Virus record (IMG/VR): IMGVR_UViG_3300045988_088177
Location: 1-45,808 of that record
Direction: 5' to 3' (one strand)
Length of the DNA stretch: 45,808 nt
From: a virus
The position numbers and the translations under genes are program-made. Every line of letters begins with the position of its first letter. Within the stretch, counting starts at the first letter, position 1. Positions 13,922-43,161 of this stretch are shown here, one piece after another. Under the pieces are notes generated by a model. The model was not told the DNA's origin and ran no database searches. It saw only the letters and a list, made by a program, of their open reading frames with translations.

Positions 13922-13996
13922 TGGAGGGCTGTACAGGATTTGAACCTGTGACCTACGGATTAACAGTCCGTTGCTCTACCGCTGAGCTAACAACCC
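13922..13996 (-). tRNA. tRNA-Asn (anticodon GTT), CCA encoded
   Basis: RNA is GGGTTGT-TA-GCTC-AGCGGTA-GAGC-A-ACGGA-CTGTTAA-TCCGT-AGGTC-ACAGG-TTCAAAT-CCTGT-ACAGCCC-T-CCA. It folds into a full cloverleaf of 75 nt. Confidence 0.9.
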
Positions 13997-14341: not shown

Positions 14342-14415
14342 TGGTTGCGGCAGAAAGAATCGAACTTCCATTACATGGGTCAAAACCATGTGCCTTACCT
14401 TTTGGCTATGCCGCA
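14342..14415 (-). tRNA. tRNA-Gln (anticodon TTG), CCA encoded
   Basis: RNA is TGCGGCA-TA-GCC-AAAAGGTAA-GGC-A-CATGG-TTTTGAC-CCATG-TAAT-GGAAG-TTCGATT-CTTTC-TGCCGCA-A-CCA. The U1-A72 pair and 3-bp D stem match bacterial tRNA-Gln. Confidence 0.9.
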
Positions 14416-21441: not shown

Positions 21442-22008
21442 TTAGGCCTCCGGTTCGCCAATTTTTGTGTCAATCCCGTTTCTTGTGAATGATATTTGAA
21501 TGCCCATTTTCTTGCCGGTGGAGACATCTACTGCTATGCTCCCGTGTCTGTTTTCCTTTCCTAGGCCAGACTTCTGCTGGTAATACACAGTATGGATTCC
21601 ATCTGGCAGATTGAATCTAGCAGACCCGCCGTTTGCAATATCCACTTGCGGTTTATCATCCACTTTCACAGAAAGAAGAACCGCGCTTCCTGTTTTGCAC
21701 GGTTTTCGAGTAATACGTAGATTATACTCAGATTCCTCATCCGGCCTTGTAGCAGTCTTACAGTTCTCAACAGTCCCAGAGTACCCGCAGTCTTGGCAGG
21801 TCAAAACGCTCTGATATGCCTGCGGGATGACGGCCTTCACGATTGCAGAGACAATCAGCCCAAGAAGAGCGCCTGCAATAGCTCCGGCAATTCCTAGAAA
21901 CATCGTTCCGAACCCGATAAATACGAGCAATATCGGGCCGGTAAGCTTTGGCTTGTATTCTCTTGATTGAATTTGAACATTCTCAGACCCGCATTTTGGG
22001 CATTTCAT
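21442..22008 (-). CDS. Zinc-ribbon membrane protein
   Basis: ATG at 22008 follows GAAGGAG. Has MKCPKCGSENV...CQDCGYSG (two CxxC pairs flanking two predicted TM segments) and a beta-rich C-terminal domain. Confidence 0.65.
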   Translation of the reverse strand: MKCPKCGSENVQIQSREYKPKLTGPILLVFIGFGTMFLGIAGAIAGALLGLIVSAIVKAVIPQAYQSVLTCQDCGYSGTVENCKTATRPDEESEYNLRITRKPCKTGSAVLLSVKVDDKPQVDIANGGSARFNLPDGIHTVYYQQKSGLGKENRHGSIAVDVSTGKKMGIQISFTRNGIDTKIGEPEA

Positions 22009-22028
22009 AGCTGTCACTCCTTCAAATT

Positions 22029-22787
22029 TTATGTTTCCAGAATTGGTTCGTGCTGGCCCTTGACCCATTCGCCGTCCTCGCCGTATCTGTATTCACCACG
22101 GTATGTCCGCTCGTTGTTCCAGATACTCTGCACTGTGGAGATTACAAATGGTTTTCCACGCCGTGTATGATACCCAGCCTCATTCAGGGCTTTGACAGTT
22201 CCAAGCATCGTGTCACCAGCGAATTTATGCTTGAATATGAAACGCACAACCTCCGCTTCTGGTTCATTGATAACAAGATGCTTATCTACGACCTTGTAGC
22301 CCATAGGAGCCTGCCCGCCAGCGTAGCCACCGGCTTTTGCTTTCTGCTTTCTTCCTCCGGTCATGCGGGAGCGGATATTCTCACGCTCAATCTGAGCGAC
22401 CATTGCCATAAAGTTCTCCAAAATCATGGCAGTCAGCTTGTCCTGCGCTGACCAATCCTCTTTGACGCTGAGAATTTCCAGCCCCAGTTCGTTCAGCCGC
22501 ATCTTAAATCCGTAGTAAAGGCAAATGTCACGGGAAAGCCGGTCCGCTCTGGCCACCACAACGTAATCCGTCGGAGGGTTTGTCACTTCTCCGCTCAAAA
22601 TCTTGTCGAGAGCCGGACGGCGTACTTTGGCACCGCTGACAGCTTCGTCGATATACCAGTTTACGACTTCTATGTCGTGCGCCTCACAGTATTCTTTAAT
22701 GTCAGACCGTTGCGCTTCAATGCCATAAGCATCTTCGCCAGTTTGCCCTTTTGTGGACACTCTCAGGTAAGCAACAGCACGTTTCAT
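22029..22787 (-). CDS. Short serine recombinase: resolvase catalytic domain plus recombinase domain, lacking the zinc-ribbon and coiled-coil
   Basis: MKRAVAYLRVSTKGQ...ARADRLSRD catalytic motifs. It ends right after ...WVKGQHEPILET, where large serine recombinases continue. ATG at 22787 follows GAGGTGA. The ATG at 22805 abuts the -10 box. Confidence 0.8.
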   Translation of the reverse strand: MKRAVAYLRVSTKGQTGEDAYGIEAQRSDIKEYCEAHDIEVVNWYIDEAVSGAKVRRPALDKILSGEVTNPPTDYVVVARADRLSRDICLYYGFKMRLNELGLEILSVKEDWSAQDKLTAMILENFMAMVAQIERENIRSRMTGGRKQKAKAGGYAGGQAPMGYKVVDKHLVINEPEAEVVRFIFKHKFAGDTMLGTVKALNEAGYHTRRGKPFVISTVQSIWNNERTYRGEYRYGEDGEWVKGQHEPILET

Positions 22788-22805
22788 ACTTATCACCTCG
22801 CCCAT

Positions 22806-28386: not shown

Positions 28387-28662
28387 CTATACATCGAATT
28401 GATAATGCTCAAACAGCCATCGCAGGGCTTGTTGCAGTTCATCTTTTGTAATGCCGTTCAGCGTTTCAAAGGATGCAATTTTTTCAATGGCAAGGACTTT
28501 TGCCCAGATCGGGACTGTTTCATCGCCCATACGATATTTGAAAATGTCAAAGGCTTGTCCGAGGCTCAAATTCCCGGTACACGGGAATGGAATCACAGCC
28601 GGTTCTGGCTCATCGGTGATTTCCTGTGGAAATCCGTCCATTTTGGTTTGCAAGGTCATCAA
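28387..28662 (-). CDS. Hypothetical protein
   Basis: 91-aa ORF. Confidence 0.5.
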   Translation of the reverse strand: MMTLQTKMDGFPQEITDEPEPAVIPFPCTGNLSLGQAFDIFKYRMGDETVPIWAKVLAIEKIASFETLNGITKDELQQALRWLFEHYQFDV

Positions 28663-28991
28663 GGCAATACCTCCTCCGGCGGTTCGGGAAGCGGCATCCA
28701 GAAAAGAACTTTGGTATCTCTGCCAGAGGAAACCTCACCGCCCCAATTCCCGTTGTACTGGAATCCGATACCATATGTCTGCCACAGTCTGTTGTAGTTA
28801 CCGTACCGGAAATACTGGTACCAACACAAAACATCTTGCCCGTCCACTGGCAACCTCTCGCTGCACGGAATCCACTTTGTCTGTTTCAGCGCCTCCATGC
28901 CCATCCGGCAAGCCTCGTTTAACTCGTCCAGGCTGTCATAATGTTCCCGGTGTTCCGGGTTGAGAATTTCAATTGCTCGGTCAATCGTCAT
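28659..28991 (-). CDS. DUF551-like protein
   Basis: The C-terminal part (WIPCSERLPVDGQDVLCW...VLFWMPLPEPP) matches the usual DUF551 pattern. Confidence 0.6.
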   Translation of the reverse strand: MTIDRAIEILNPEHREHYDSLDELNEACRMGMEALKQTKWIPCSERLPVDGQDVLCWYQYFRYGNYNRLWQTYGIGFQYNGNWGGEVSSGRDTKVLFWMPLPEPPEEVLP

Positions 28992-29164
28992 TGTTCATCA
29001 CTCCAATCTAACGGTTTATGACACATCGGGCATTCATCCGGTTTTTCGTCTTTGGCAATAAGCCCCAGTTGCCGCTTACAGTGCGGGCAAAACGGAATGT
29101 TCCACCAACCATAAGTAGACCCAATGCGCCATTTTCTTTTTTTGTATGTTGGCTTGTTATCCAT
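28988..29164 (-). CDS. Small zinc-ribbon protein
   Basis: ATG at 29164 overlaps the upstream stop (ATGGATAA). Contains CPHC...CPMC. Confidence 0.5.
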   Translation of the reverse strand: MDNKPTYKKRKWRIGSTYGWWNIPFCPHCKRQLGLIAKDEKPDECPMCHKPLDWSDEQ

Positions 29165-29852
29165 TTTCACCCTCCATTTCTTTTCGTAGGGATTCTTTGA
29201 TATAGTAGTCCATCCCAAGTTTAAGGCACAGCCGCTCTGCCTCCTGGCCGAACTTCTTCCAGTCAATATTCGACTTATGGTAGTTCAGCTTTCCGATTTT
29301 CACTTTATCGATAATATCGTGGCAATTGGATAGCATATCCAGGACAGCGACCGGATTTATAACAGGCTCACAGGATACCCATGTACTGATACCGCACTCT
29401 TTCGCAGAGTATAGGTCAATCAGTCTGTCCGACGGCTCATAAATGCCATGGCTGGAGCCATCGTATGTAATCCCATACCAGTCGTTCCCATCCAATAGGT
29501 CAAAGTCTCGGCTTCCATCACCCTTGGTGAGGATCTGGACATTGTTCCCGCTCTCTTTGATGGCTTGGATGACGGCCATGGTGGTGGAAGTGTCGTAGCC
29601 CGTTGGGTACGGATCACAGGTAAAGCACAGGTGAATCAGCTGGTCTTTGATGTTCGCACGCTCCAACTGCTGCTTTAGGGCTTCCACCAGCCCAGGGCGG
29701 GGTTCTACATGGGTGTGAAAAGTTTCCCTGTCTCGGTGCAGCACATTCGGCGCAAAGCAGTAATAGCACCTGTGCGGACAGCCGGTGTAGATATTCACGG
29801 CATAATCGCCGTACTCCTTGGCCTTGCCTTTCGGCACATATAACGGTTTCAT
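29157..29852 (-). CDS. Radical SAM enzyme 1 (CxxxCxxC; SplB/'DNA repair photolyase'-like N-terminus)
   Basis: MKPLYVPKGKAKEYGDYAVNIYTGCPHRCYYCF. The ATG is coupled to the upstream stop (ATGA). Confidence 0.75.
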   Translation of the reverse strand: MKPLYVPKGKAKEYGDYAVNIYTGCPHRCYYCFAPNVLHRDRETFHTHVEPRPGLVEALKQQLERANIKDQLIHLCFTCDPYPTGYDTSTTMAVIQAIKESGNNVQILTKGDGSRDFDLLDGNDWYGITYDGSSHGIYEPSDRLIDLYSAKECGISTWVSCEPVINPVAVLDMLSNCHDIIDKVKIGKLNYHKSNIDWKKFGQEAERLCLKLGMDYYIKESLRKEMEGENG

Positions 29853-30160
29853 TTCAATTCCTCCAAATCCATTTTCGCACCGCAATGGCAGTAGGGGTAT
29901 CCACGGCAAGCCTCGCCGTATTCTCCGAGTTCCAGCAGATGGCGCAGATCAGTGTTCACTACCCTGCGACCACATACTGAGCATTCCAGGCACAAGGTCG
30001 ATTCATCCGAAAGCCGGATATTCCAGTTCCCATGCCGCACCGGCTCCACATCGGCGGCGGGGGTTCGATTTATCGCATCAGTTAAACTTGATATCGATGC
30101 AGGTTTCGGCATACTTCTCCAAACCGAAAATATTTTATCCCGGCTGATGTAATCACTCAT
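29849..30160 (-). CDS. Hypothetical Cys-rich protein
   Basis: ATG at 30160 is coupled (ATGA). Contains ...ADVEPVRHGNW...CLECSVCG...CHCG. Confidence 0.55.
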   Translation of the reverse strand: MSDYISRDKIFSVWRSMPKPASISSLTDAINRTPAADVEPVRHGNWNIRLSDESTLCLECSVCGRRVVNTDLRHLLELGEYGEACRGYPYCHCGAKMDLEELK

Positions 30161-30726
30161 TTCAGTTCCTCCACATAACACCAGCTCTGGGGCGGGCGCT
30201 TAATATGACCGCCATTTTCGCATAATGCACACCCAAATTCATCACACGTTTTGCCTATGCAGTTTTCAAACGGGCGTGAAAACTTGCTCAGCTCCTTCGG
30301 CGTATCGTAGATTTTCAGGTTGGAAATGTGCCATGCGTACCCGCCTCCGCCGCCCAAATATTGTTCGATTCTTTCAGTGCTCATGCAAGTCGCTGAAAAA
30401 TCAAAATTGGGTTCCAGCTCTATCGGATTATCCGCCTTGTAGGCTCGAAGTACAGGTTTTTTGCCGCTGCCAGAATACCCAACGTGCGTAATGCTATTGA
30501 TTCTGTCGCAAGTAAACTCTGCAAGGATCTTCCCGCGCCCACGGAATATCATGTGCCCGTCTTCGTCAATCCATGGGGTATCGCTCTTTCCTTGTGTCTC
30601 GTAAATATAGCACTTAAACGGAGTTCCAAGATTCGGACGGGTCTTTCGGATTTCCACCGTTTTCTCGTCGGTGACGATCTTCTGCACCCACTCCGGGCGG
30701 ATGCTGATAAGTACCGCTTTAGCCAT
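30157..30726 (-). CDS. ASCH (PUA-like) domain protein
   Basis: The N-terminus MAKAVLISIRPEWVQKIVTDEKTVEIRKTRP is the typical ASCH opening. Confidence 0.7.
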   Translation of the reverse strand: MAKAVLISIRPEWVQKIVTDEKTVEIRKTRPNLGTPFKCYIYETQGKSDTPWIDEDGHMIFRGRGKILAEFTCDRINSITHVGYSGSGKKPVLRAYKADNPIELEPNFDFSATCMSTERIEQYLGGGGGYAWHISNLKIYDTPKELSKFSRPFENCIGKTCDEFGCALCENGGHIKRPPQSWCYVEELK

Positions 30727-30955
30727 GGTCAGCCCTCCGGTTCCAGATTTTCACAGTCGGTGCGTAGTTCCCACAAATCATACAGGTCACGCCATGCCGG
30801 AACGTCTTTCGATACCACCGGATGATCTTCGGTGCCCCAACGGAACACGGCTTTCCGTAGGCAAGTATCCGTCTGCCGCATTTTGGACACGGCTTCACTG
30901 TGTAATTGCAAATGTCCGGGATTCCGGTTGCAGCTGCGTAATTTTCAAGTTTCAT
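30719..30955 (-). CDS. lar: Lar-family restriction alleviation protein
   Basis: ATG at 30955 follows AAGGAG. Contains CPKCG...CMICG...KIWNRR, the Lar-type zinc ribbon with the WNRR tail. Confidence 0.65.
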   Translation of the reverse strand: MKLENYAAATGIPDICNYTVKPCPKCGRRILAYGKPCSVGAPKIIRWYRKTFRHGVTCMICGNYAPTVKIWNRRADHG

Positions 30956-31013
30956 ATTATCTCCTTTCCGCCCGGGTTTCCCCGGGCTTTTAACCGTGTC
31001 GATTTCGATGCCT

Positions 31014-31859
31014 TTAAGTTCTATTCGCCCAGAAGTCCGCATATTTTCTCCCAACAATCACAGCGTTTGCCCATTCCCTCTGGAATTTTCGCCACGCCGG
31101 GTCACGCCTCCCTGTTTCGTCCCGGTAGAGCATGGCGAAGGGCAGAAATCCCAACTCCATGATTTGTTCGGCTCGTTTCTCCGCTGCATCCATGCTGTCC
31201 TCCGGATAGCCGCACAGCAGATAACACTTTACCTGGTGGCTTTTCCAGCTTAGCCCCGCATTATGCAACATGTCCGACATAGCCATTAAATGCTCGTAGT
31301 CGTCCATGGTATCATACGCCGTATACATCGTCTGTGGCCTAACGGACATAAGCTGCTCTGCCTTCCACGGGGTCATGTACTCCGGTTCCAGCCCGCCGGA
31401 AAATACCGGCCTTTGTTTTTGCCGTTTGAGCATATCGATCACGGCCCGGAAATGCACGTCAGAGGTCGCCAAAATGTTGTCGTCCAGGATGTTCCATCCG
31501 TCCCGCACTGGTAGCTCGATAACCCTGCCGTTGGCGCATTTTCCCACATCGCAGAACCAGCAATCTTTTGGACAGCCCCGGCTTGTGATCGTCATGCCCT
31601 CACGCAGGTACATTCCAGGGGTAAACGTGTCGCCCATCCGGTCGCCAAACGCAGGCCCACCCACTTCCACGGGAACACCCAACATTTCCCACTGGTAATA
31701 CAGCTCGTCGGCCTTTTCCAGGTCCCAGCTAAACGTGACAGAGATATGCACTTCCTCCGGCTCTGCTGCCATAGCTTCAATGGTCGGCGGCCCAAAGAAT
31801 GCCAGTGGATCAGTGGGCGACATAGATGTTTTCGTTGGAAATACTCTTGCTATCTTCAT
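31014..31859 (-). CDS. Radical SAM enzyme 2 (TSRGCPxxCxFC type)
   Basis: ATG at 31859 follows GGAGG. Contains MTITSRGCPKDCWFCDV (CxxxCxxC). Confidence 0.75.
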   Translation of the reverse strand: MKIARVFPTKTSMSPTDPLAFFGPPTIEAMAAEPEEVHISVTFSWDLEKADELYYQWEMLGVPVEVGGPAFGDRMGDTFTPGMYLREGMTITSRGCPKDCWFCDVGKCANGRVIELPVRDGWNILDDNILATSDVHFRAVIDMLKRQKQRPVFSGGLEPEYMTPWKAEQLMSVRPQTMYTAYDTMDDYEHLMAMSDMLHNAGLSWKSHQVKCYLLCGYPEDSMDAAEKRAEQIMELGFLPFAMLYRDETGRRDPAWRKFQREWANAVIVGRKYADFWANRT

Positions 31860-31873
31860 GTTTGCCTCCATAA

Positions 31874-31897
31874 CATTTCCGTGAGGCCACGAAAATG
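31874..31897 (-). promoter_or_regulatory. Conserved palindrome/hairpin, copy 2
   Basis: CATTTCCGTG-aggc-CACGAAAATG. On the minus-strand RNA the single difference from copy 1 becomes a U-G pair. It lies 14 nt upstream of the 31859 start. Confidence 0.7.
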
Positions 31898-31898
31898 A

Positions 31899-32547
31899 TC
31901 ATCCCCATTGTTCTGCCATAGCTTTGGCAATTCCGGTGAATGTTTTGGAGCGTTCCTTTGGACTTCGCCGCCCTTTGTTTTCCCATTCTCCCGGTCGAGC
32001 TGCCCGTCCATGCGGTGTGGCGTCTACCCATTTTCCAGTCGGCACCACGCAATCCGTCGCCATCAGCAAGGGCAGGTTTTTGAGCCATAGGCACGTCCTT
32101 TTGCACCAGGCCTCTCCGAACATAAACGGTTGGATAATCTGGGAGTAGGGGGGGGAGCCCATGAACGCTGCCGGGAACTGGATTTTCAACTGCAATTCTC
32201 GGAATGTCGGCATTCAGCATGGCCATAAATAGTGCCTTTGCCGCTTTTGCTTTTTGCATGCGTCCCTCCTGTATTTCACCGTTTATCCGCAGCCGATTGG
32301 CCCCGGCGTTGCTGAGATATGTACACGGCGGGTGTGCAATCAGCAAATCCCACCGCCCAACATCATGCGTCCGTCCATCCATGGTGGTCACTTGCCCCTC
32401 GATGGCTTCCAGGGCATCCCCCAGGATGTGCCACTCCGGGTGCCCGCCTGACGGCTCCTGGATATCGCAGGAATAGGCCTCATGCCCCCGCTCCCGGAAC
32501 GCAGTACAGACGGTCTGGGATTCCTCGCAGGCGACCAGAACTTTCAT
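31899..32547 (-). pseudogene. C5 DNA methyltransferase-like gene interrupted by a +1 frameshift in a G8/C8 homopolymer
   Basis: The N-terminal part (MKVLVACEESQ...LIAHPPCTYLS...IAVENPV) and C-terminal part (...YSQIIQPFMFGEAWCKRTCLWLKNLP...TFTGIAKAMAEQWG) lie in frames that differ by 1 nt at 32148-32155. The span is 649 nt, which is not a multiple of 3. Confidence 0.7.
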
Positions 32548-32900
32548 TTCTCGCCATCCTCCACCGGGGAGCGGAGCCAGTCGAGCCAGCAGGTCTCGCA
32601 GCGCTCGTTGCACTTTGCTCCTCCCGGAGGGCATCCGCCGTTAAGGATTTTTGCTAGTTCCTTATCCGTCATGTCTCGGATTCTGTCTCTGTTTGTTTTC
32701 GGCTTCACTTTTCTCTGAGATTCAAGCTTCCACTTTGCTTCAAGCGCATCCTGAAAGCAATTGGCCGCTTCGTGGAGGCCCGCTGCCCATACCTGGTGCA
32801 TCATTTCCATTTCCCATTCCCTGGGGTTTTTGCAGCACCCATTTTCTCCATGCTCGTGGGTTACTGGGTTTGGCGTAAGCTGTTCTACCACGTTGATCAT
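32544..32900 (-). CDS. Hypothetical protein (C-terminal DRIRDM...CWLDWL domain)
   Basis: 118 aa. The C-terminal domain is paralogous to 32897..33100. Confidence 0.55.
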   Translation of the reverse strand: MINVVEQLTPNPVTHEHGENGCCKNPREWEMEMMHQVWAAGLHEAANCFQDALEAKWKLESQRKVKPKTNRDRIRDMTDKELAKILNGGCPPGGAKCNERCETCWLDWLRSPVEDGEK

Positions 32901-34576: not shown

Positions 34577-35335
34577 CTAAAAATATTTCACCAGATCATC
34601 ATCCGGCTGGGTGTAGTTACCCCGGTTTCCGGAGCCGTTGTGTCCACGCCCTTCTGAGCGTTCCCACGTCCGTACAGCGGCTTTCCAGTCCCGCATGGGG
34701 TTCTTGCCCACCATCCATCCTTTCGAGGCGTAGAAGTCCACGAACGCCTCAGGATTTACCCTGTTGCCACGTTCTTGGCAATAGGCCGTTACTTCGGCAA
34801 CGGTCGGTGGAACAAAACGCTTTGCTTTCGTCTTCTTCGGCAAGGATTTTTGGTCGCTGCACTCGTCAGAGTGCCCTATACAATCCGTTAGGATTGTATT
34901 ATTAACCTCTCCTATACTATCCTTATCTAATCTATCCTTACCTGGGGCAACCATTTGGCAACCATTTGGCAACCGTCCGGCAACCATTTGACAACCATCT
35001 GTATACGAGCCATCATCCGAAATTCCCAATTTTGCAAACTCTTCACGGAAATTTGTGGGTGTATATCGGTCTTTTCGTAGTGTATTGTGCATTCTCCAAT
35101 GACGAATGACAATCACGCCGCTTTCAAATCGGATGATGAATTTCTTCACCATAAGCACCTTCAAATCATCAAGACTTGCGTGCGCCTTGAATAGGGCGTT
35201 CTGAATCTGATTGTTGAATCCGTCATCGTCAGCGCTCTGGTTCAGGTGGAAGTAGAGCGCTTGCGCAGAAGCGGAAAGCTCGATGAACTGGTCACTATCT
35301 GTGACTTTTTTGGAAAACATGCGTCGTTCAGCCAT
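34577..35335 (-). CDS. Phage replisome organiser / replication initiator
   Basis: The N-terminus MAERRMFSKKVTDSDQFIELSASAQALYFHL is typical of the replisome-organiser N-domain. The C-terminus is DnaD-like (FVDFYASKGWMVG). Contains the iterons. Confidence 0.8.
   Translation of the reverse strand: MAERRMFSKKVTDSDQFIELSASAQALYFHLNQSADDDGFNNQIQNALFKAHASLDDLKVLMVKKFIIRFESGVIVIRHWRMHNTLRKDRYTPTNFREEFAKLGISDDGSYTDGCQMVAGRLPNGCQMVAPGKDRLDKDSIGEVNNTILTDCIGHSDECSDQKSLPKKTKAKRFVPPTVAEVTAYCQERGNRVNPEAFVDFYASKGWMVGKNPMRDWKAAVRTWERSEGRGHNGSGNRGNYTQPDDDLVKYF
34947..35001. repeat. Five tandem 11-bp iterons (candidate origin of replication)
   Basis: gcaaccatttg, gcaaccatttg, gcaaccgtccg, gcaaccatttg, acaaccatctg. 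Confidence 0.8.
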
Positions 35336-40886: not shown

Positions 40887-41516
40887 ATGGCAAACCAGCA
40901 AATCATTCAGCAAATTTCTACAATTTGCGAAAATCTTCCTACGAAAATGAAGAACGCCAAGGAAGACCAGCGTAAAACGAACCAGCAAATCATAGACAGC
41001 ACCGGGCTGAGCGAATCTACCGTCAAAAAATTTTTCTCAGGGCATCTATCCGGGCCAAGCATCTATGATGTTACGGCCATAGCCATTGATCTGGGCCTTT
41101 CTCTTGATGAACTGATGGAGATTTCACCGCCAAGGCAAGACCAAAGCGCTGAAATTGCGCAGCTAAAAACCGAGCTCGCCCACAAAGAGGAAATGATTGC
41201 TGAGAAGGGCAAAGCCATATCCAGGCTGGAAGACAGAAGCCACATAATGGAAAATGAAATTTCTACAGTCCGTAGTAACTGGAAGGAAATTGCCTATGTA
41301 ACATCTGGTCTTTCTGTGCTGTTTGGTTTGCTCCTGATGGTATATGTAACCTTGGACGCTAGGAATCCAAATCTTGGCCTAATTAGGGGCACCACAACAG
41401 CCCCAATTGTGTACGTTGCGGCTTTTTCCATTATCGGAATGTGCTTGTATATCGTCCGAACAGTGGCAAGGCGAAACGCAAAAGGGAGGAAACGGGATGC
41501 AAACAATGCCCATTGA
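40887..41516 (+). CDS. Membrane-anchored HTH protein (XRE-like HTH, coiled coil, two TM helices)
   Basis: ATG at 40887 follows GGGGG. HTH is QQIIDSTGLSESTVKKFFSG...IYDVTAIAIDLGLSLDEL. TM segments are VTSGLSVLFGLLLMVYV and IVYVAAFSIIGMCLYIV. Confidence 0.7.
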   Translation: MANQQIIQQISTICENLPTKMKNAKEDQRKTNQQIIDSTGLSESTVKKFFSGHLSGPSIYDVTAIAIDLGLSLDELMEISPPRQDQSAEIAQLKTELAHKEEMIAEKGKAISRLEDRSHIMENEISTVRSNWKEIAYVTSGLSVLFGLLLMVYVTLDARNPNLGLIRGTTTAPIVYVAAFSIIGMCLYIVRTVARRNAKGRKRDANNAH

Positions 41517-43161
41517 CCTGTCGGCGCTGACTCCGGAGGAAAGGCAGCAGTTTGCGGAGAATCCTTCTGTGCTGTCCACAGACTGCGTGGCCACCTGCTG
41601 CCTGTATATGCGCTATTCCTCCGACCGGCAATCGGAACAGTCCATAGAGGGCCAGCTCCGGGAATTGATATCATACTGTATCCGGCAAGAATACCGTATT
41701 GCCGCCGTGTATGTGGACCGGGCAATATCTGCCCATACCAGCATGGCAAAACGTGTAGCATTTCAGCAGATGCTTGCAGACAGCAAGCGAGCCGCATGGA
41801 ACACCGTGCTCGTGTGGAAGCTTGACCGCTTCGCCCGGAACCGTCAGGACAGCGCCGCCGCCCGTGCCCTTCTGTACAAAAACGGCTGCGGCGTGGAATC
41901 CGCCACGGAGGCCATTTCCGCCACCAAGGAGGGCCGTCTCCTGGAATCTGTCTTGGAGGGTCTGAATGAATATTACTCCGACGAACTCCGGGAGAAAATC
42001 ATCCGCGGCAACCGGGAAAGCGCCCTAAAAGGGAACGCCCTGGGTGGTTCTGTTCCTCTTGGTTACAAAATCGAAAACAAAAAATGGGCAATTGACCCAC
42101 TAACCGCACCATTGGTGTCTGAGGCTTTCGACAGATACGCCAGCGGGGATACTGTAGCCGCCATCTGCGATGATTTTAACGCCAGAGGCTACCGTACAGC
42201 AAAGGGTGCTAAATTTAATAAAAGCAGTTTCAAGAATATCTTCCGAAACGAGAAATACATTGGCGTGTACAAATACAAGGATATTCGCCAGGAAGATTCT
42301 GTTCCGAGAATTGTCACAGACGATGTGTGGGCAAAGGTAAAAGCTCGTCTGAAAGTCAATGAGTCAGCCCCTGCCAGGGGAAAAGCCAAGGTGCCATATC
42401 TACTCGCCGGTAAGATTTTCTGTGGCCATTGCGGCTCTCAGATGGTCGGAGAGTGTGGCAGGAGCAAGAACGGCCATACCTACAATTACTACTCCTGCGC
42501 AGGTCGCAAAATCCGAAGGGACTGTAATAAAAAGCCAGTCCCGAAGGACTGGATAGAGGATATTGTTGTCCAGGATGCCTTGGAGGTCCTGACGGATGAT
42601 GTCATTGATTATGTCGCTACCGTCGCCGCCCGCCAGTCAGAAGAGGAAATACAGCAGAATACCAACATCCCCGCTATCCGGGAGCAGATCGCCGATATTG
42701 AACGCAAGGTGCGTAACCTGACCAAGGCTATAGAGACCAGCGGAATGGCCCCTGACACGCTGGTATCCAGGATTGCAGAATTGGAGTCCCAACGCAAAGG
42801 ATTATCCGCCCAGCTGTTGGAAGAGCAGCATTCCGTCATCCACCTAACCAAGGAAATGGTGGTCTACTACCTGGAATCCGTTCGTAAGCAGGCCGTCCCG
42901 CTGGAAACCCAGAAAAAGATGCTCATAGACCTGTTTGTCAACTCCGTCACAGTTTACGACGATGACCAGGGCTATTTCAAAATCATAACCGCTTACAATT
43001 TATCAGAAGTTCCGACAAAAACATATCGTGTTTCTACATCATTTGTAGAAGCCGGGAGTTCGGATACGGGGCCGAATGGTCCACCATTGGACGCAAATCC
43101 GAACACGATAACCGTTTCCGGAATGGTCTTCGTCCAAACCAGAAAACACGCCTTGCCGTAA
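41497..43161 (+). CDS. int: Large serine recombinase (integrase)
   Basis: ATG follows GGGAGG. Has the resolvase core (YMRYSSDRQ...WKLDRFARN), a recombinase domain, a zinc ribbon (CGHCGS...YYSCAGRKIRRDC) and a coiled coil. 554 aa. Confidence 0.9.
   Translation: MQTMPIDLSALTPEERQQFAENPSVLSTDCVATCCLYMRYSSDRQSEQSIEGQLRELISYCIRQEYRIAAVYVDRAISAHTSMAKRVAFQQMLADSKRAAWNTVLVWKLDRFARNRQDSAAARALLYKNGCGVESATEAISATKEGRLLESVLEGLNEYYSDELREKIIRGNRESALKGNALGGSVPLGYKIENKKWAIDPLTAPLVSEAFDRYASGDTVAAICDDFNARGYRTAKGAKFNKSSFKNIFRNEKYIGVYKYKDIRQEDSVPRIVTDDVWAKVKARLKVNESAPARGKAKVPYLLAGKIFCGHCGSQMVGECGRSKNGHTYNYYSCAGRKIRRDCNKKPVPKDWIEDIVVQDALEVLTDDVIDYVATVAARQSEEEIQQNTNIPAIREQIADIERKVRNLTKAIETSGMAPDTLVSRIAELESQRKGLSAQLLEEQHSVIHLTKEMVVYYLESVRKQAVPLETQKKMLIDLFVNSVTVYDDDQGYFKIITAYNLSEVPTKTYRVSTSFVEAGSSDTGPNGPPLDANPNTITVSGMVFVQTRKHALP

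Follow-up and report, generated by a model that had tools for sequence, protein, structure and literature searches.

Two radical SAM genes in what is probably a hypervariable accessory region of a temperate gut phage

When six genes with different predicted functions are packed into 3.4 kb of a phage genome, do they encode one pathway or a set of unrelated cassettes? We addressed this question at positions 29157–32547 of a 45,808-nucleotide viral contig (IMG/VR record IMGVR_UViG_3300045988_088177; JGI metagenome contig 3300055987 Ga0250204_00320), hereafter the window. The stretch encodes two radical S-adenosylmethionine (SAM) proteins, which we call RS1 and RS2, together with a C5-methyltransferase (MTase)-like protein, a Lar-like protein, an ASCH-like protein and a Cys-rich protein. 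The initial annotation joined the six into a single operon-encoded pathway that would install or process a protective hypermodification of DNA or RNA. Our results point elsewhere. The stretch is probably part of a hypervariable accessory region in the genome of a temperate, siphovirus-like phage from gut Clostridia (Oscillospiraceae-type), a region that collects independent cassettes and does not encode a single pathway.

One line of evidence comes from four separately anchored sets of related loci: 30 loci around RS1 and 88 around RS2, with 8 kb on each side, 80 viral loci around the ASCH-like gene and 80 around the MTase-like gene. Partners were counted at E ≤ 1e-5 in windows of 5–8 kb on each side. 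Among the 30 RS1 loci, 2 have RS2 within 8 kb of RS1, and among the 88 RS2 loci, 1 has RS1 within this distance of RS2, on a contig already included among the RS1 loci. RS1, RS2 and the MTase-like gene are all missing from 67 of the 80 ASCH-anchored loci; the MTase-like gene alone accompanies the ASCH-like gene in 10/80, RS2 in 2/80 and RS1 in 1/80. The MTase-anchored loci contain the ASCH-like gene in 21/80 cases, RS1 in 2/80 and RS2 in none of the 80. Clustering of all neighbours in these loci gave no partner gene specific to RS1 or RS2. The neighbour clusters that seemed enriched turned out to be an overlapping-frame artefact or to come from one clonal phage group.

The genes and elements of the region, all on the minus strand, are the following, in the order of transcription:
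32544–32900, minus strand: conserved gene for a 118-aa protein; its 3' end delimits the variable slot on the left, and homology to the sibling phage L208 ends at 32544.
31899–32547, minus strand: minimal C5-MTase-like gene (phrog_757), disrupted by a +1 frameshift.
32148–32155, minus strand: homopolymer of eight C (C8) that causes this frameshift; the in-frame length is C7.
31014–31871, minus strand: RS1, a 285-aa radical SAM protein with a predicted Rossmann-like N-domain (about residues 1–75) followed by the CX3CX2C barrel.
30961–30987, minus strand: conserved GC-rich hairpin with the sequence GCCCGGG-GAAA-CCCGGGC; a ribosome-binding site comes next, and the first variable slot has its right boundary here.
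30719–30955, minus strand: Lar-like zinc-ribbon protein of 78 aa, counted from the ATG at 30955; the open reading frame reaches upstream to a TTG at 31057.
30157–30726, minus strand: ASCH-like (PUA-like) protein of 189 aa; its C-terminal part is rich in Cys, and the RPPQSWCYVEE tail is conserved.
29849–30160, minus strand: Cys-rich protein of 103 aa without assigned function (phrog_22543).
29157–29852, minus strand: RS2, a 231-aa minimal radical SAM protein, apparently of an SPL/COG1533/DUF5131-like branch.
28988–29164, minus strand: 58-aa zinc-ribbon protein directly downstream of RS2.
28659–28991, minus strand: DUF551 protein, a common resident of the variable region.

Between 28.6 and 33 kb every credible gene is on the minus strand and overlaps or abuts its neighbours. 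The six open reading frames that the initial annotation had placed in one operon are all present, at or near the same positions, co-directional and tightly spaced, but the break in the MTase-like frame had escaped notice. No convincing minus-strand terminator was found inside the region, and transcription of the six genes as one operon is plausible.

The most direct evidence for the cassette arrangement is offered by L208: its RecT is the same as that of the window, and down to position 32544 the two DNA sequences agree at 99.8% and 96% identity. Past this point L208 carries a PAPS-reductase-like gene (PF01507, L208:14844-15740) where the window has the MTase-like gene and RS1. Homology returns at a 60-bp hairpin junction and a second time at 28701; L208 has no RS2. 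To judge from this exchange, the slot accepts interchangeable cassettes, which may be connected with DNA modification. The junction hairpin in the window has a GAAA tetraloop, a folding free energy of –17.3 kcal/mol and a z-score of –3.95. The same element, of about 33 nucleotides, marks the cassette junctions of at least 27 related loci. Its function may be that of a recombination linker, or it may affect the processing or stability of mRNA. In some relatives the MTase-like gene ahead of RS1 or RS2 is reduced to a 35-aa stub. Because the genes are unlinked in the anchored samples, are swapped in L208 and have the hairpin at their borders, we conclude that the region is probably a recombination hot spot filled with independent single-gene cassettes, which would recombine independently of each other at the conserved junctions. 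A scheme in which RS1 and RS2 occupy one and the same slot was dropped, as relatives place RS1 before the hairpin and RS2 after it.

Variable accessory regions of this type are well established in lambdoid phages, where the nin region lies between the replication genes and the late and packaging genes. The region studied here appears to be analogous: RecE/RecT, SSB, DnaD-like and DnaC-like genes lie upstream of it, and HNH, small and large terminase (TerS, TerL), portal and tail genes lie downstream. The likeness extends to the many small, overlapping, co-directional genes (Lar-like, DUF551, methyltransferase, HNH) and to mosaic exchange at conserved junctions. Unlike the lambdoid nin region, it belongs to a Clostridia host lineage, and its repertoire includes two uncharacterised radical SAM families. 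The phage is temperate and also has a large serine integrase (584 aa, 41407–43161), and a scan of genome contigs with a narrower-alignment profile found RS1 relatives on eight contigs of metagenome-assembled genomes, all from Clostridia/Oscillospiraceae. Megablast of the region against 50,697 GenBank phages returned two 190-bp matches only.

The MTase-like gene gives a second reason to doubt a common pathway. Its match to phrog_757, “DNA methyltransferase”, is divided between two reading frames, with the N-terminal part starting at the ATG at 32547 and the C-terminal part continuing in a different frame up to 31899. The open reading frame as it stands encodes a 245-aa product ending at 31810, and removal of one C from the C8 run restores a 215-aa protein that is collinear with intact homologues in relatives. 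An assembly error can be ruled out. An independent ENA assembly has the identical C8 run (100% identity over 7.85 kb), and seven contigs encode the frameshifted product, which shows the allele to be real. The databases contain more than 8000 homologues of the 215-aa protein, 205–232 aa long, one of which is named “DNA cytosine methyltransferase” at NCBI.

The family keeps motifs IV (HPPCT, PPC) and VI (ENP) of C5-MTases, while the SAM-binding motif I (FxGxG) is replaced by an invariant ACEESQ. The match to PF00145 has an E value of 0.17, which leaves the protein outside the C5-MTase family as defined there, and a search of the PDB with the family profile found no C5-MTase. Judged from these motifs, the family may not be a SAM-dependent methyltransferase at all.

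The broken frame may also have a regulatory meaning. In the MTase-anchored sample 79 of the 80 genes are intact, and 47 of these 79 contain homopolymers of 7–8 nucleotides. Two further homologues are frameshifted, one at a G10 run (L104, about 1545–1560) and the other at a (CA)n repeat (L106, about 1790–1810). Frameshifts at simple repeats in this family could reflect phase variation, and a homopolymer frameshift within a methyltransferase-like gene is what phase-variable DNA methyltransferases have in common with the present case. The differences are that all seven contigs with the allele are in the off state, with no length heterogeneity seen, and that the protein lacks motif I, its activity being putative.

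These features would fit a two-gene unit in which the MTase-like protein presents or activates a pyrimidine, RS1 modifies it and the C tract phase-switches expression. The MTase-like gene adjoins RS1 in three loci (L007, L009 and L015), both genes are replaced together in L208, and the repeats and the G10 and (CA)n frameshifts described above are in keeping with switching. However, about 20 of the 30 RS1 loci have no MTase-like gene or only the 35-aa stub. We consider the two-gene unit distinctly unlikely because RS1 is found in just 2 of the 80 MTase-anchored loci and the MTase-like frame is off on every contig that carries the allele.

If the six genes are separate, what does each radical SAM protein do? 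The cluster motif of RS1, C100-x3-C104-x2-C107, is kept at 100%, 99% and 100%, respectively, in 80 diverse homologues, and the cluster cysteines of RS2, C25, C29 and C32, are invariant in 52 homologues. RS1 matches phrog_9298, “radical SAM domain protein”, with an E value of 4e-18. Its own score against the Pfam model Radical_SAM (PF04055), 17.7 bits, is below the gathering threshold of 29.5, although 54 of the 80 family members match the model at E < 0.01; RS2 is barely above the same threshold at 29.9 bits. The AlphaFold models have a mean predicted local distance difference test score (pLDDT) of 87.8 for RS1 and 88.6 for RS2. The best PDB matches of RS1 are radical SAM enzymes and the top matches of RS2 are radical SAM cores, with a Foldseek probability of 1.00 in both cases. 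We take both to be genuine radical SAM proteins, as the initial annotation had it, because the cysteines are near-invariant, the models are confident and the structural neighbours in the PDB are radical SAM enzymes. For RS1, a start at 31871 and the start at 31859 chosen in the initial annotation are equally plausible. Family classification had been proposed there as a check on function, and by this check neither protein reaches the cut-off of any characterised family. Searches of the PDB with single sequences and with profiles of close homologues gave nothing significant for RS1 or RS2, and tblastn against GenBank phages gave 4 and 8 weak matches, respectively, labelled “radical SAM” only.

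RS1 represents a well delimited family of proteins of about 280 aa, with at least 4221 clusters at 90% identity and at least 1654 at 50%, for which neither Pfam nor NCBIfam has a specific model. The top ranks in Foldseek are taken by the B12-dependent methylase MgmA (E 7e-8), RimO and AprD4, with template modelling (TM) scores of 0.50–0.56. Independently of Foldseek, a broad RS1 family profile run against the PDB retrieves MgmA, RimO and MiaB, and family members match B12-binding radical SAM and MiaB/RimO models weakly. RS1 shares the domain order of the class B methylases and MiaB/RimO enzymes (MgmA 9CCB, RimO 4JC0, AprD4 6FD2), a Rossmann-like domain followed by the barrel, and has GGP and DDN-type motifs in common with them. 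It is much shorter, with 285 aa compared to 420–450 aa, and the modelled N-domain comprises just about 75 aa with four short strands. The B12-binding domain PF02310 (about 130 aa), expected for class B methylases, is matched neither by RS1 nor by its 80 relatives. Unlike the MiaB/RimO methylthiotransferases, RS1 lacks the N-terminal three-Cys auxiliary cluster (UPF0004) and a TRAM or other C-terminal domain: no conserved Cys precedes residue 100, and the protein stops at residue 285. Since PF02310, the auxiliary Cys triad and TRAM are all absent, we place RS1 near the B12-binding/methylthiotransferase branch, going by its fold and profile neighbours, and in none of the MgmA, RimO and MiaB families. 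Its closest resemblance is to enzymes that add methyl or methylthio groups to unactivated carbons of proteins, RNA or small molecules, and its own reaction would most likely be a C–H functionalization, e.g. methylation, on a macromolecular or nucleotide substrate. A search upstream of RS1 for a cobalamin or SAM riboswitch found none. Domain fusions in longer RS1 relatives are uninformative, with the exception of an intein: the 550-aa homologue P0247 is interrupted near the cluster-binding region by an intein that contains an HNH endonuclease.

RS2 belongs to another large family, with at least 4710 clusters at 90% identity. Its nearest folds are those of a generic minimal core (SuiB, SkfB, BlsE, QueE and viperin; E 1e-4 to 1e-3), and Foldseek against BFVD gave generic radical SAM matches only. 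Sequence profiles are more specific. The initial annotation had likened the opening of RS2 to the SplB/“DNA repair photolyase” group, and this likeness is borne out. All 52 family members match the PA0069, Rv2578c and rSAM_mob_pairB models, at E values of 1e-10 to 1e-13. Those members of the SPL-like branch that are characterised or regulated either act on DNA or are part of the response to its damage. With this clade, which also includes spore photoproduct lyase (SPL), RS2 shares the cluster loop (N/Y)xYxGCxHxCxYC and the strand motif (T/C)DP(Y/F) that follows it. The similarity has clear limits. RS2 has 231 aa compared to about 320–350 aa in the SPL/COG1533 clade, and the N-terminal half alone aligns. 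Its own scores against the NCBIfam models of PA0069 and Rv2578c, 38.8 and 40.2 bits, are far from the cut-offs of 360 and 430, and the match is confined to the N-terminal 105 residues. The match to DUF5131 (PF07505) has 22.5 bits (E 9e-5) compared to a threshold of 28.9, a few homologues carry a precomputed PF07505 match, and in the literature we found nothing functional on DUF5131. Neither RS2 nor any family member matches the SPL model (TIGR03886), and to SPL chains only residues 11–39 align, with E values of 0.2–0.5, so that RS2 shows no full-length similarity to SPL. DUF5131, MJ0683-like proteins and SPL form the three sub-clusters 5-1 to 5-3 of Megacluster-5 at RadicalSAM.org, and Rv2578c and PA0069 are LexA/SOS-regulated genes. 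From its profile matches, RS2 appears to be a short, distant relative of the SPL/COG1533/DUF5131 radical SAM branch.

Three more cysteines of the RS2 family, Cys76, Cys79 and Cys209, are invariant in addition to those of the cluster. Residues 74–83 form an invariant H-L-C-F-T-C-D-P-Y-P motif that contains two of these extra cysteines. The three could belong to an auxiliary metal site or act in radical relay, and within the FTCDPYP motif Cys76 and Cys79 are candidates for a hydrogen-atom relay. The distance to the last cluster Cys, 44 residues, is presumably like that of the hydrogen-donor cysteine of SPL (Cys140/141).

Two known systems combine features found here. In Pseudomonas phage M6, the SPL-like radical SAM protein gp53 is an isomerase of N-alpha-glycinylthymidine on DNA (PMC8989533). 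The RS2 profile and gp53 align collinearly in hhalign over 139 columns that include the cluster and FT.DP motifs, with an E value of only 0.011. However, gp53 has 480 aa and lies in a cluster with 5-hmdU, kinase, aGPT-Pplase and pyridoxal phosphate (PLP)-decarboxylase functions, partners that were not seen near RS2. The second system, the “radical SAM mobile pair” A/B (TIGR04471/TIGR04470), likewise places two radical SAM genes on a mobile element. The matches are weak, pair B being matched by 52/52 RS2 members and pair A by 16/52, and RS2 scores about 32 bits compared to cut-offs of 355–410, whereas RS1 matches neither model. The two genes of such a pair would be expected to be always adjacent, whereas RS1 and RS2 are not a conserved pair.

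Are the established routes of base hypermodification represented? The initial annotation had found their usual partners missing, and our searches agree. Among the called genes of the window and its siblings there is no member of the QueC/D, FolE and DpdA Pfam families, no thymidylate-synthase-like, kinase or PLP-enzyme Pfam match, and no hydroxymethylase or aGPT-Pplase was seen. RS1 and RS2 do not match the NCBIfam QueE models, and the Foldseek match of RS2 to QueE is generic (E 1e-3), which provides no sign of a 7-deazaguanine route. Thymidine hypermodification clusters of the M6 and ViI type bring together a dUMP hydroxymethylase, the kinase 5-HMUDK, aGPT-Pplase and tailoring enzymes (PMC8989533), and these defining partner genes were not found in the window or its siblings. 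This bears directly on the single pathway suggested at the outset. The tight, co-directional packing, the nucleic-acid flavour of every gene's annotation and the precedent of an SPL-like enzyme that sculpts a DNA hypermodification in phage M6 all speak for it. Set against these are the near-zero co-occurrence of the genes in the anchored samples, the loss of three of them in L208, the broken MTase-like frame on 7/7 contigs with the allele and the missing partner enzymes. In our judgement one pathway encoded by all six genes is highly improbable.

The Lar-like and ASCH-like assignments draw on profile or pairwise matches only. The ASCH-like protein matches Pfam ASCH (PF04266) below threshold (13.7 bits compared to a cut-off of 21.2, E 0.11), but a 13-sequence profile finds the Zymomonas ASCH structure 5GUQ/5GUS with an E value of 1.5e-4 over the N-terminal 46 residues only. 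Likewise, the Lar-like protein spans the whole Pfam Lar model (PF14354) at only 11.4 bits (E 0.4, threshold 28.6), but matches a Pfam-positive Lar protein from a related locus in BLASTP (E 3e-6) and has the CPxCG...WNRRA motifs in common with it. Both are probably independent small accessory proteins related to nucleic acids or restriction.

To our knowledge, action on DNA has been described for the SPL-like clade and for no other radical SAM clade. Because of this clade membership DNA, as a lesion or a base adduct, is a candidate substrate of RS2 that we take seriously, although we stop short of favoring it. In the mechanism that we envisage, each radical SAM protein would work alone: reductive cleavage of SAM at the [4Fe-4S] cluster would generate a 5'-deoxyadenosyl radical, which, as in the chemistry of the superfamily, would abstract a hydrogen atom from the substrate, and RS2, as a shortened relative of the SPL clade, would use this radical on a DNA lesion or base adduct. 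More broadly, RS2 and perhaps RS1 may be stand-alone phage radical SAM enzymes acting on DNA outside a multi-enzyme context of the M6 gp53 type, either installing or removing a base modification or reversing a lesion or a defence-inflicted adduct. We regard this broader proposal as rather unlikely in itself, but worth stating for what would follow from it.

A different possibility is that one or both proteins have no connection with nucleic acids and serve as auxiliary metabolic or activating enzymes, for example in cofactor, lipid or peptide modification or in the activation of a host glycyl-radical enzyme in an anaerobic host. The relatives of RS1 act on protein (MgmA), on ribosomal protein or tRNA (RimO, MiaB) and on small molecules (AprD4, PhpK, HpnJ/R), the best Foldseek matches of RS2 include peptide-modifying enzymes such as SuiB and SkfB, and the median isoelectric point among close homologues is acidic in both families (5.3 and 5.9). 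On the other hand, neither protein has a SPASM/twitch or peptide-recognition domain or belongs to NrdG/PflA, both genes lie among DNA-related accessory genes, and the sequence relatives of RS2 are SOS-regulated or DNA-directed. We find this explanation doubtful but credible.

The interchangeable MTase-like, PAPS-reductase-like and Lar-like cassettes of the slot also bring to mind an anti-defence island, in which the radical SAM proteins, together with the Lar-like protein, would be counter-defence effectors that alter or destroy a host immune molecule. DNA methyltransferases of several types are found near 26–39% of the radical SAM loci compared to 16% of the ASCH-anchored controls, but this enrichment is weak and made without correction for phylogeny. 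A seeming link of RS2 to DNA methyltransferases shrank to 26% compared to 16% in the controls when counted with seeds. Furthermore, PADLOC models and known anti-defence families were matched at noise level only, and a literature search found no paper on counter-defence by phage radical SAM enzymes. A role in counter-defence is thus unlikely.

Several points weigh against our own interpretation of independent cassettes with separately acting enzymes. In about seven related loci RS1 or RS2 directly follows an intact MTase-like gene, and in L208 the MTase-like gene and RS1 were replaced as a single block. Partners that are remote or distantly related would be missed at E ≤ 1e-5 in windows of 5–8 kb, and the locus samples, capped at 80, are dominated by one gut virome set (IMG/VR 3300045988) and related phages, which makes the counts non-independent. 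Gene products without genomic linkage can still cooperate in one phage. As to function, SPL is outside the top 50 Foldseek matches of RS2, and the roles suggested for RS1 and RS2 derive from distant homology (about 10% of the cut-off bits and Foldseek TM scores of 0.5–0.6).

Elsewhere in the window, about five tandem 11-nucleotide repeats (GGCAACCATTT) lie inside the DnaD-like replication gene (34946–35001) and are probably origin iterons. The structural module contains two tRNA genes, Asn-GTT (13922–13996, minus strand) and Gln-TTG (14342–14415, minus strand). A second serine-recombinase-like gene (22029–22805, minus strand), with Resolvase and Recombinase domains but a product of 258 aa only, is overlapped and followed by a 208-aa open reading frame (21442–22068, minus strand); it forms a small island near the terminase genes, apart from the 584-aa integrase, and the recombinase may have been split or truncated.

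The four anchored samples and the near-isogenic sibling L208 thus caution against reading adjacency in phage early regions as a pathway, as the genes move independently. A lesser lead is the frameshift-prone, minimal C5-MTase-like family without the SAM-binding motif I. The lasting value of the locus lies in two large radical SAM families of gut phages that have no characterised member. Once demonstrated, the substrate of RS2 would extend radical chemistry on DNA beyond SPL and M6 gp53. If stand-alone action on DNA is true, these proteins would form a class of DNA-directed radical SAM enzymes that is new and, in gut phages, very abundant, and the slot shared with the MTase-like and PAPS-reductase-like cassettes would be an interchangeable DNA-protection locus.

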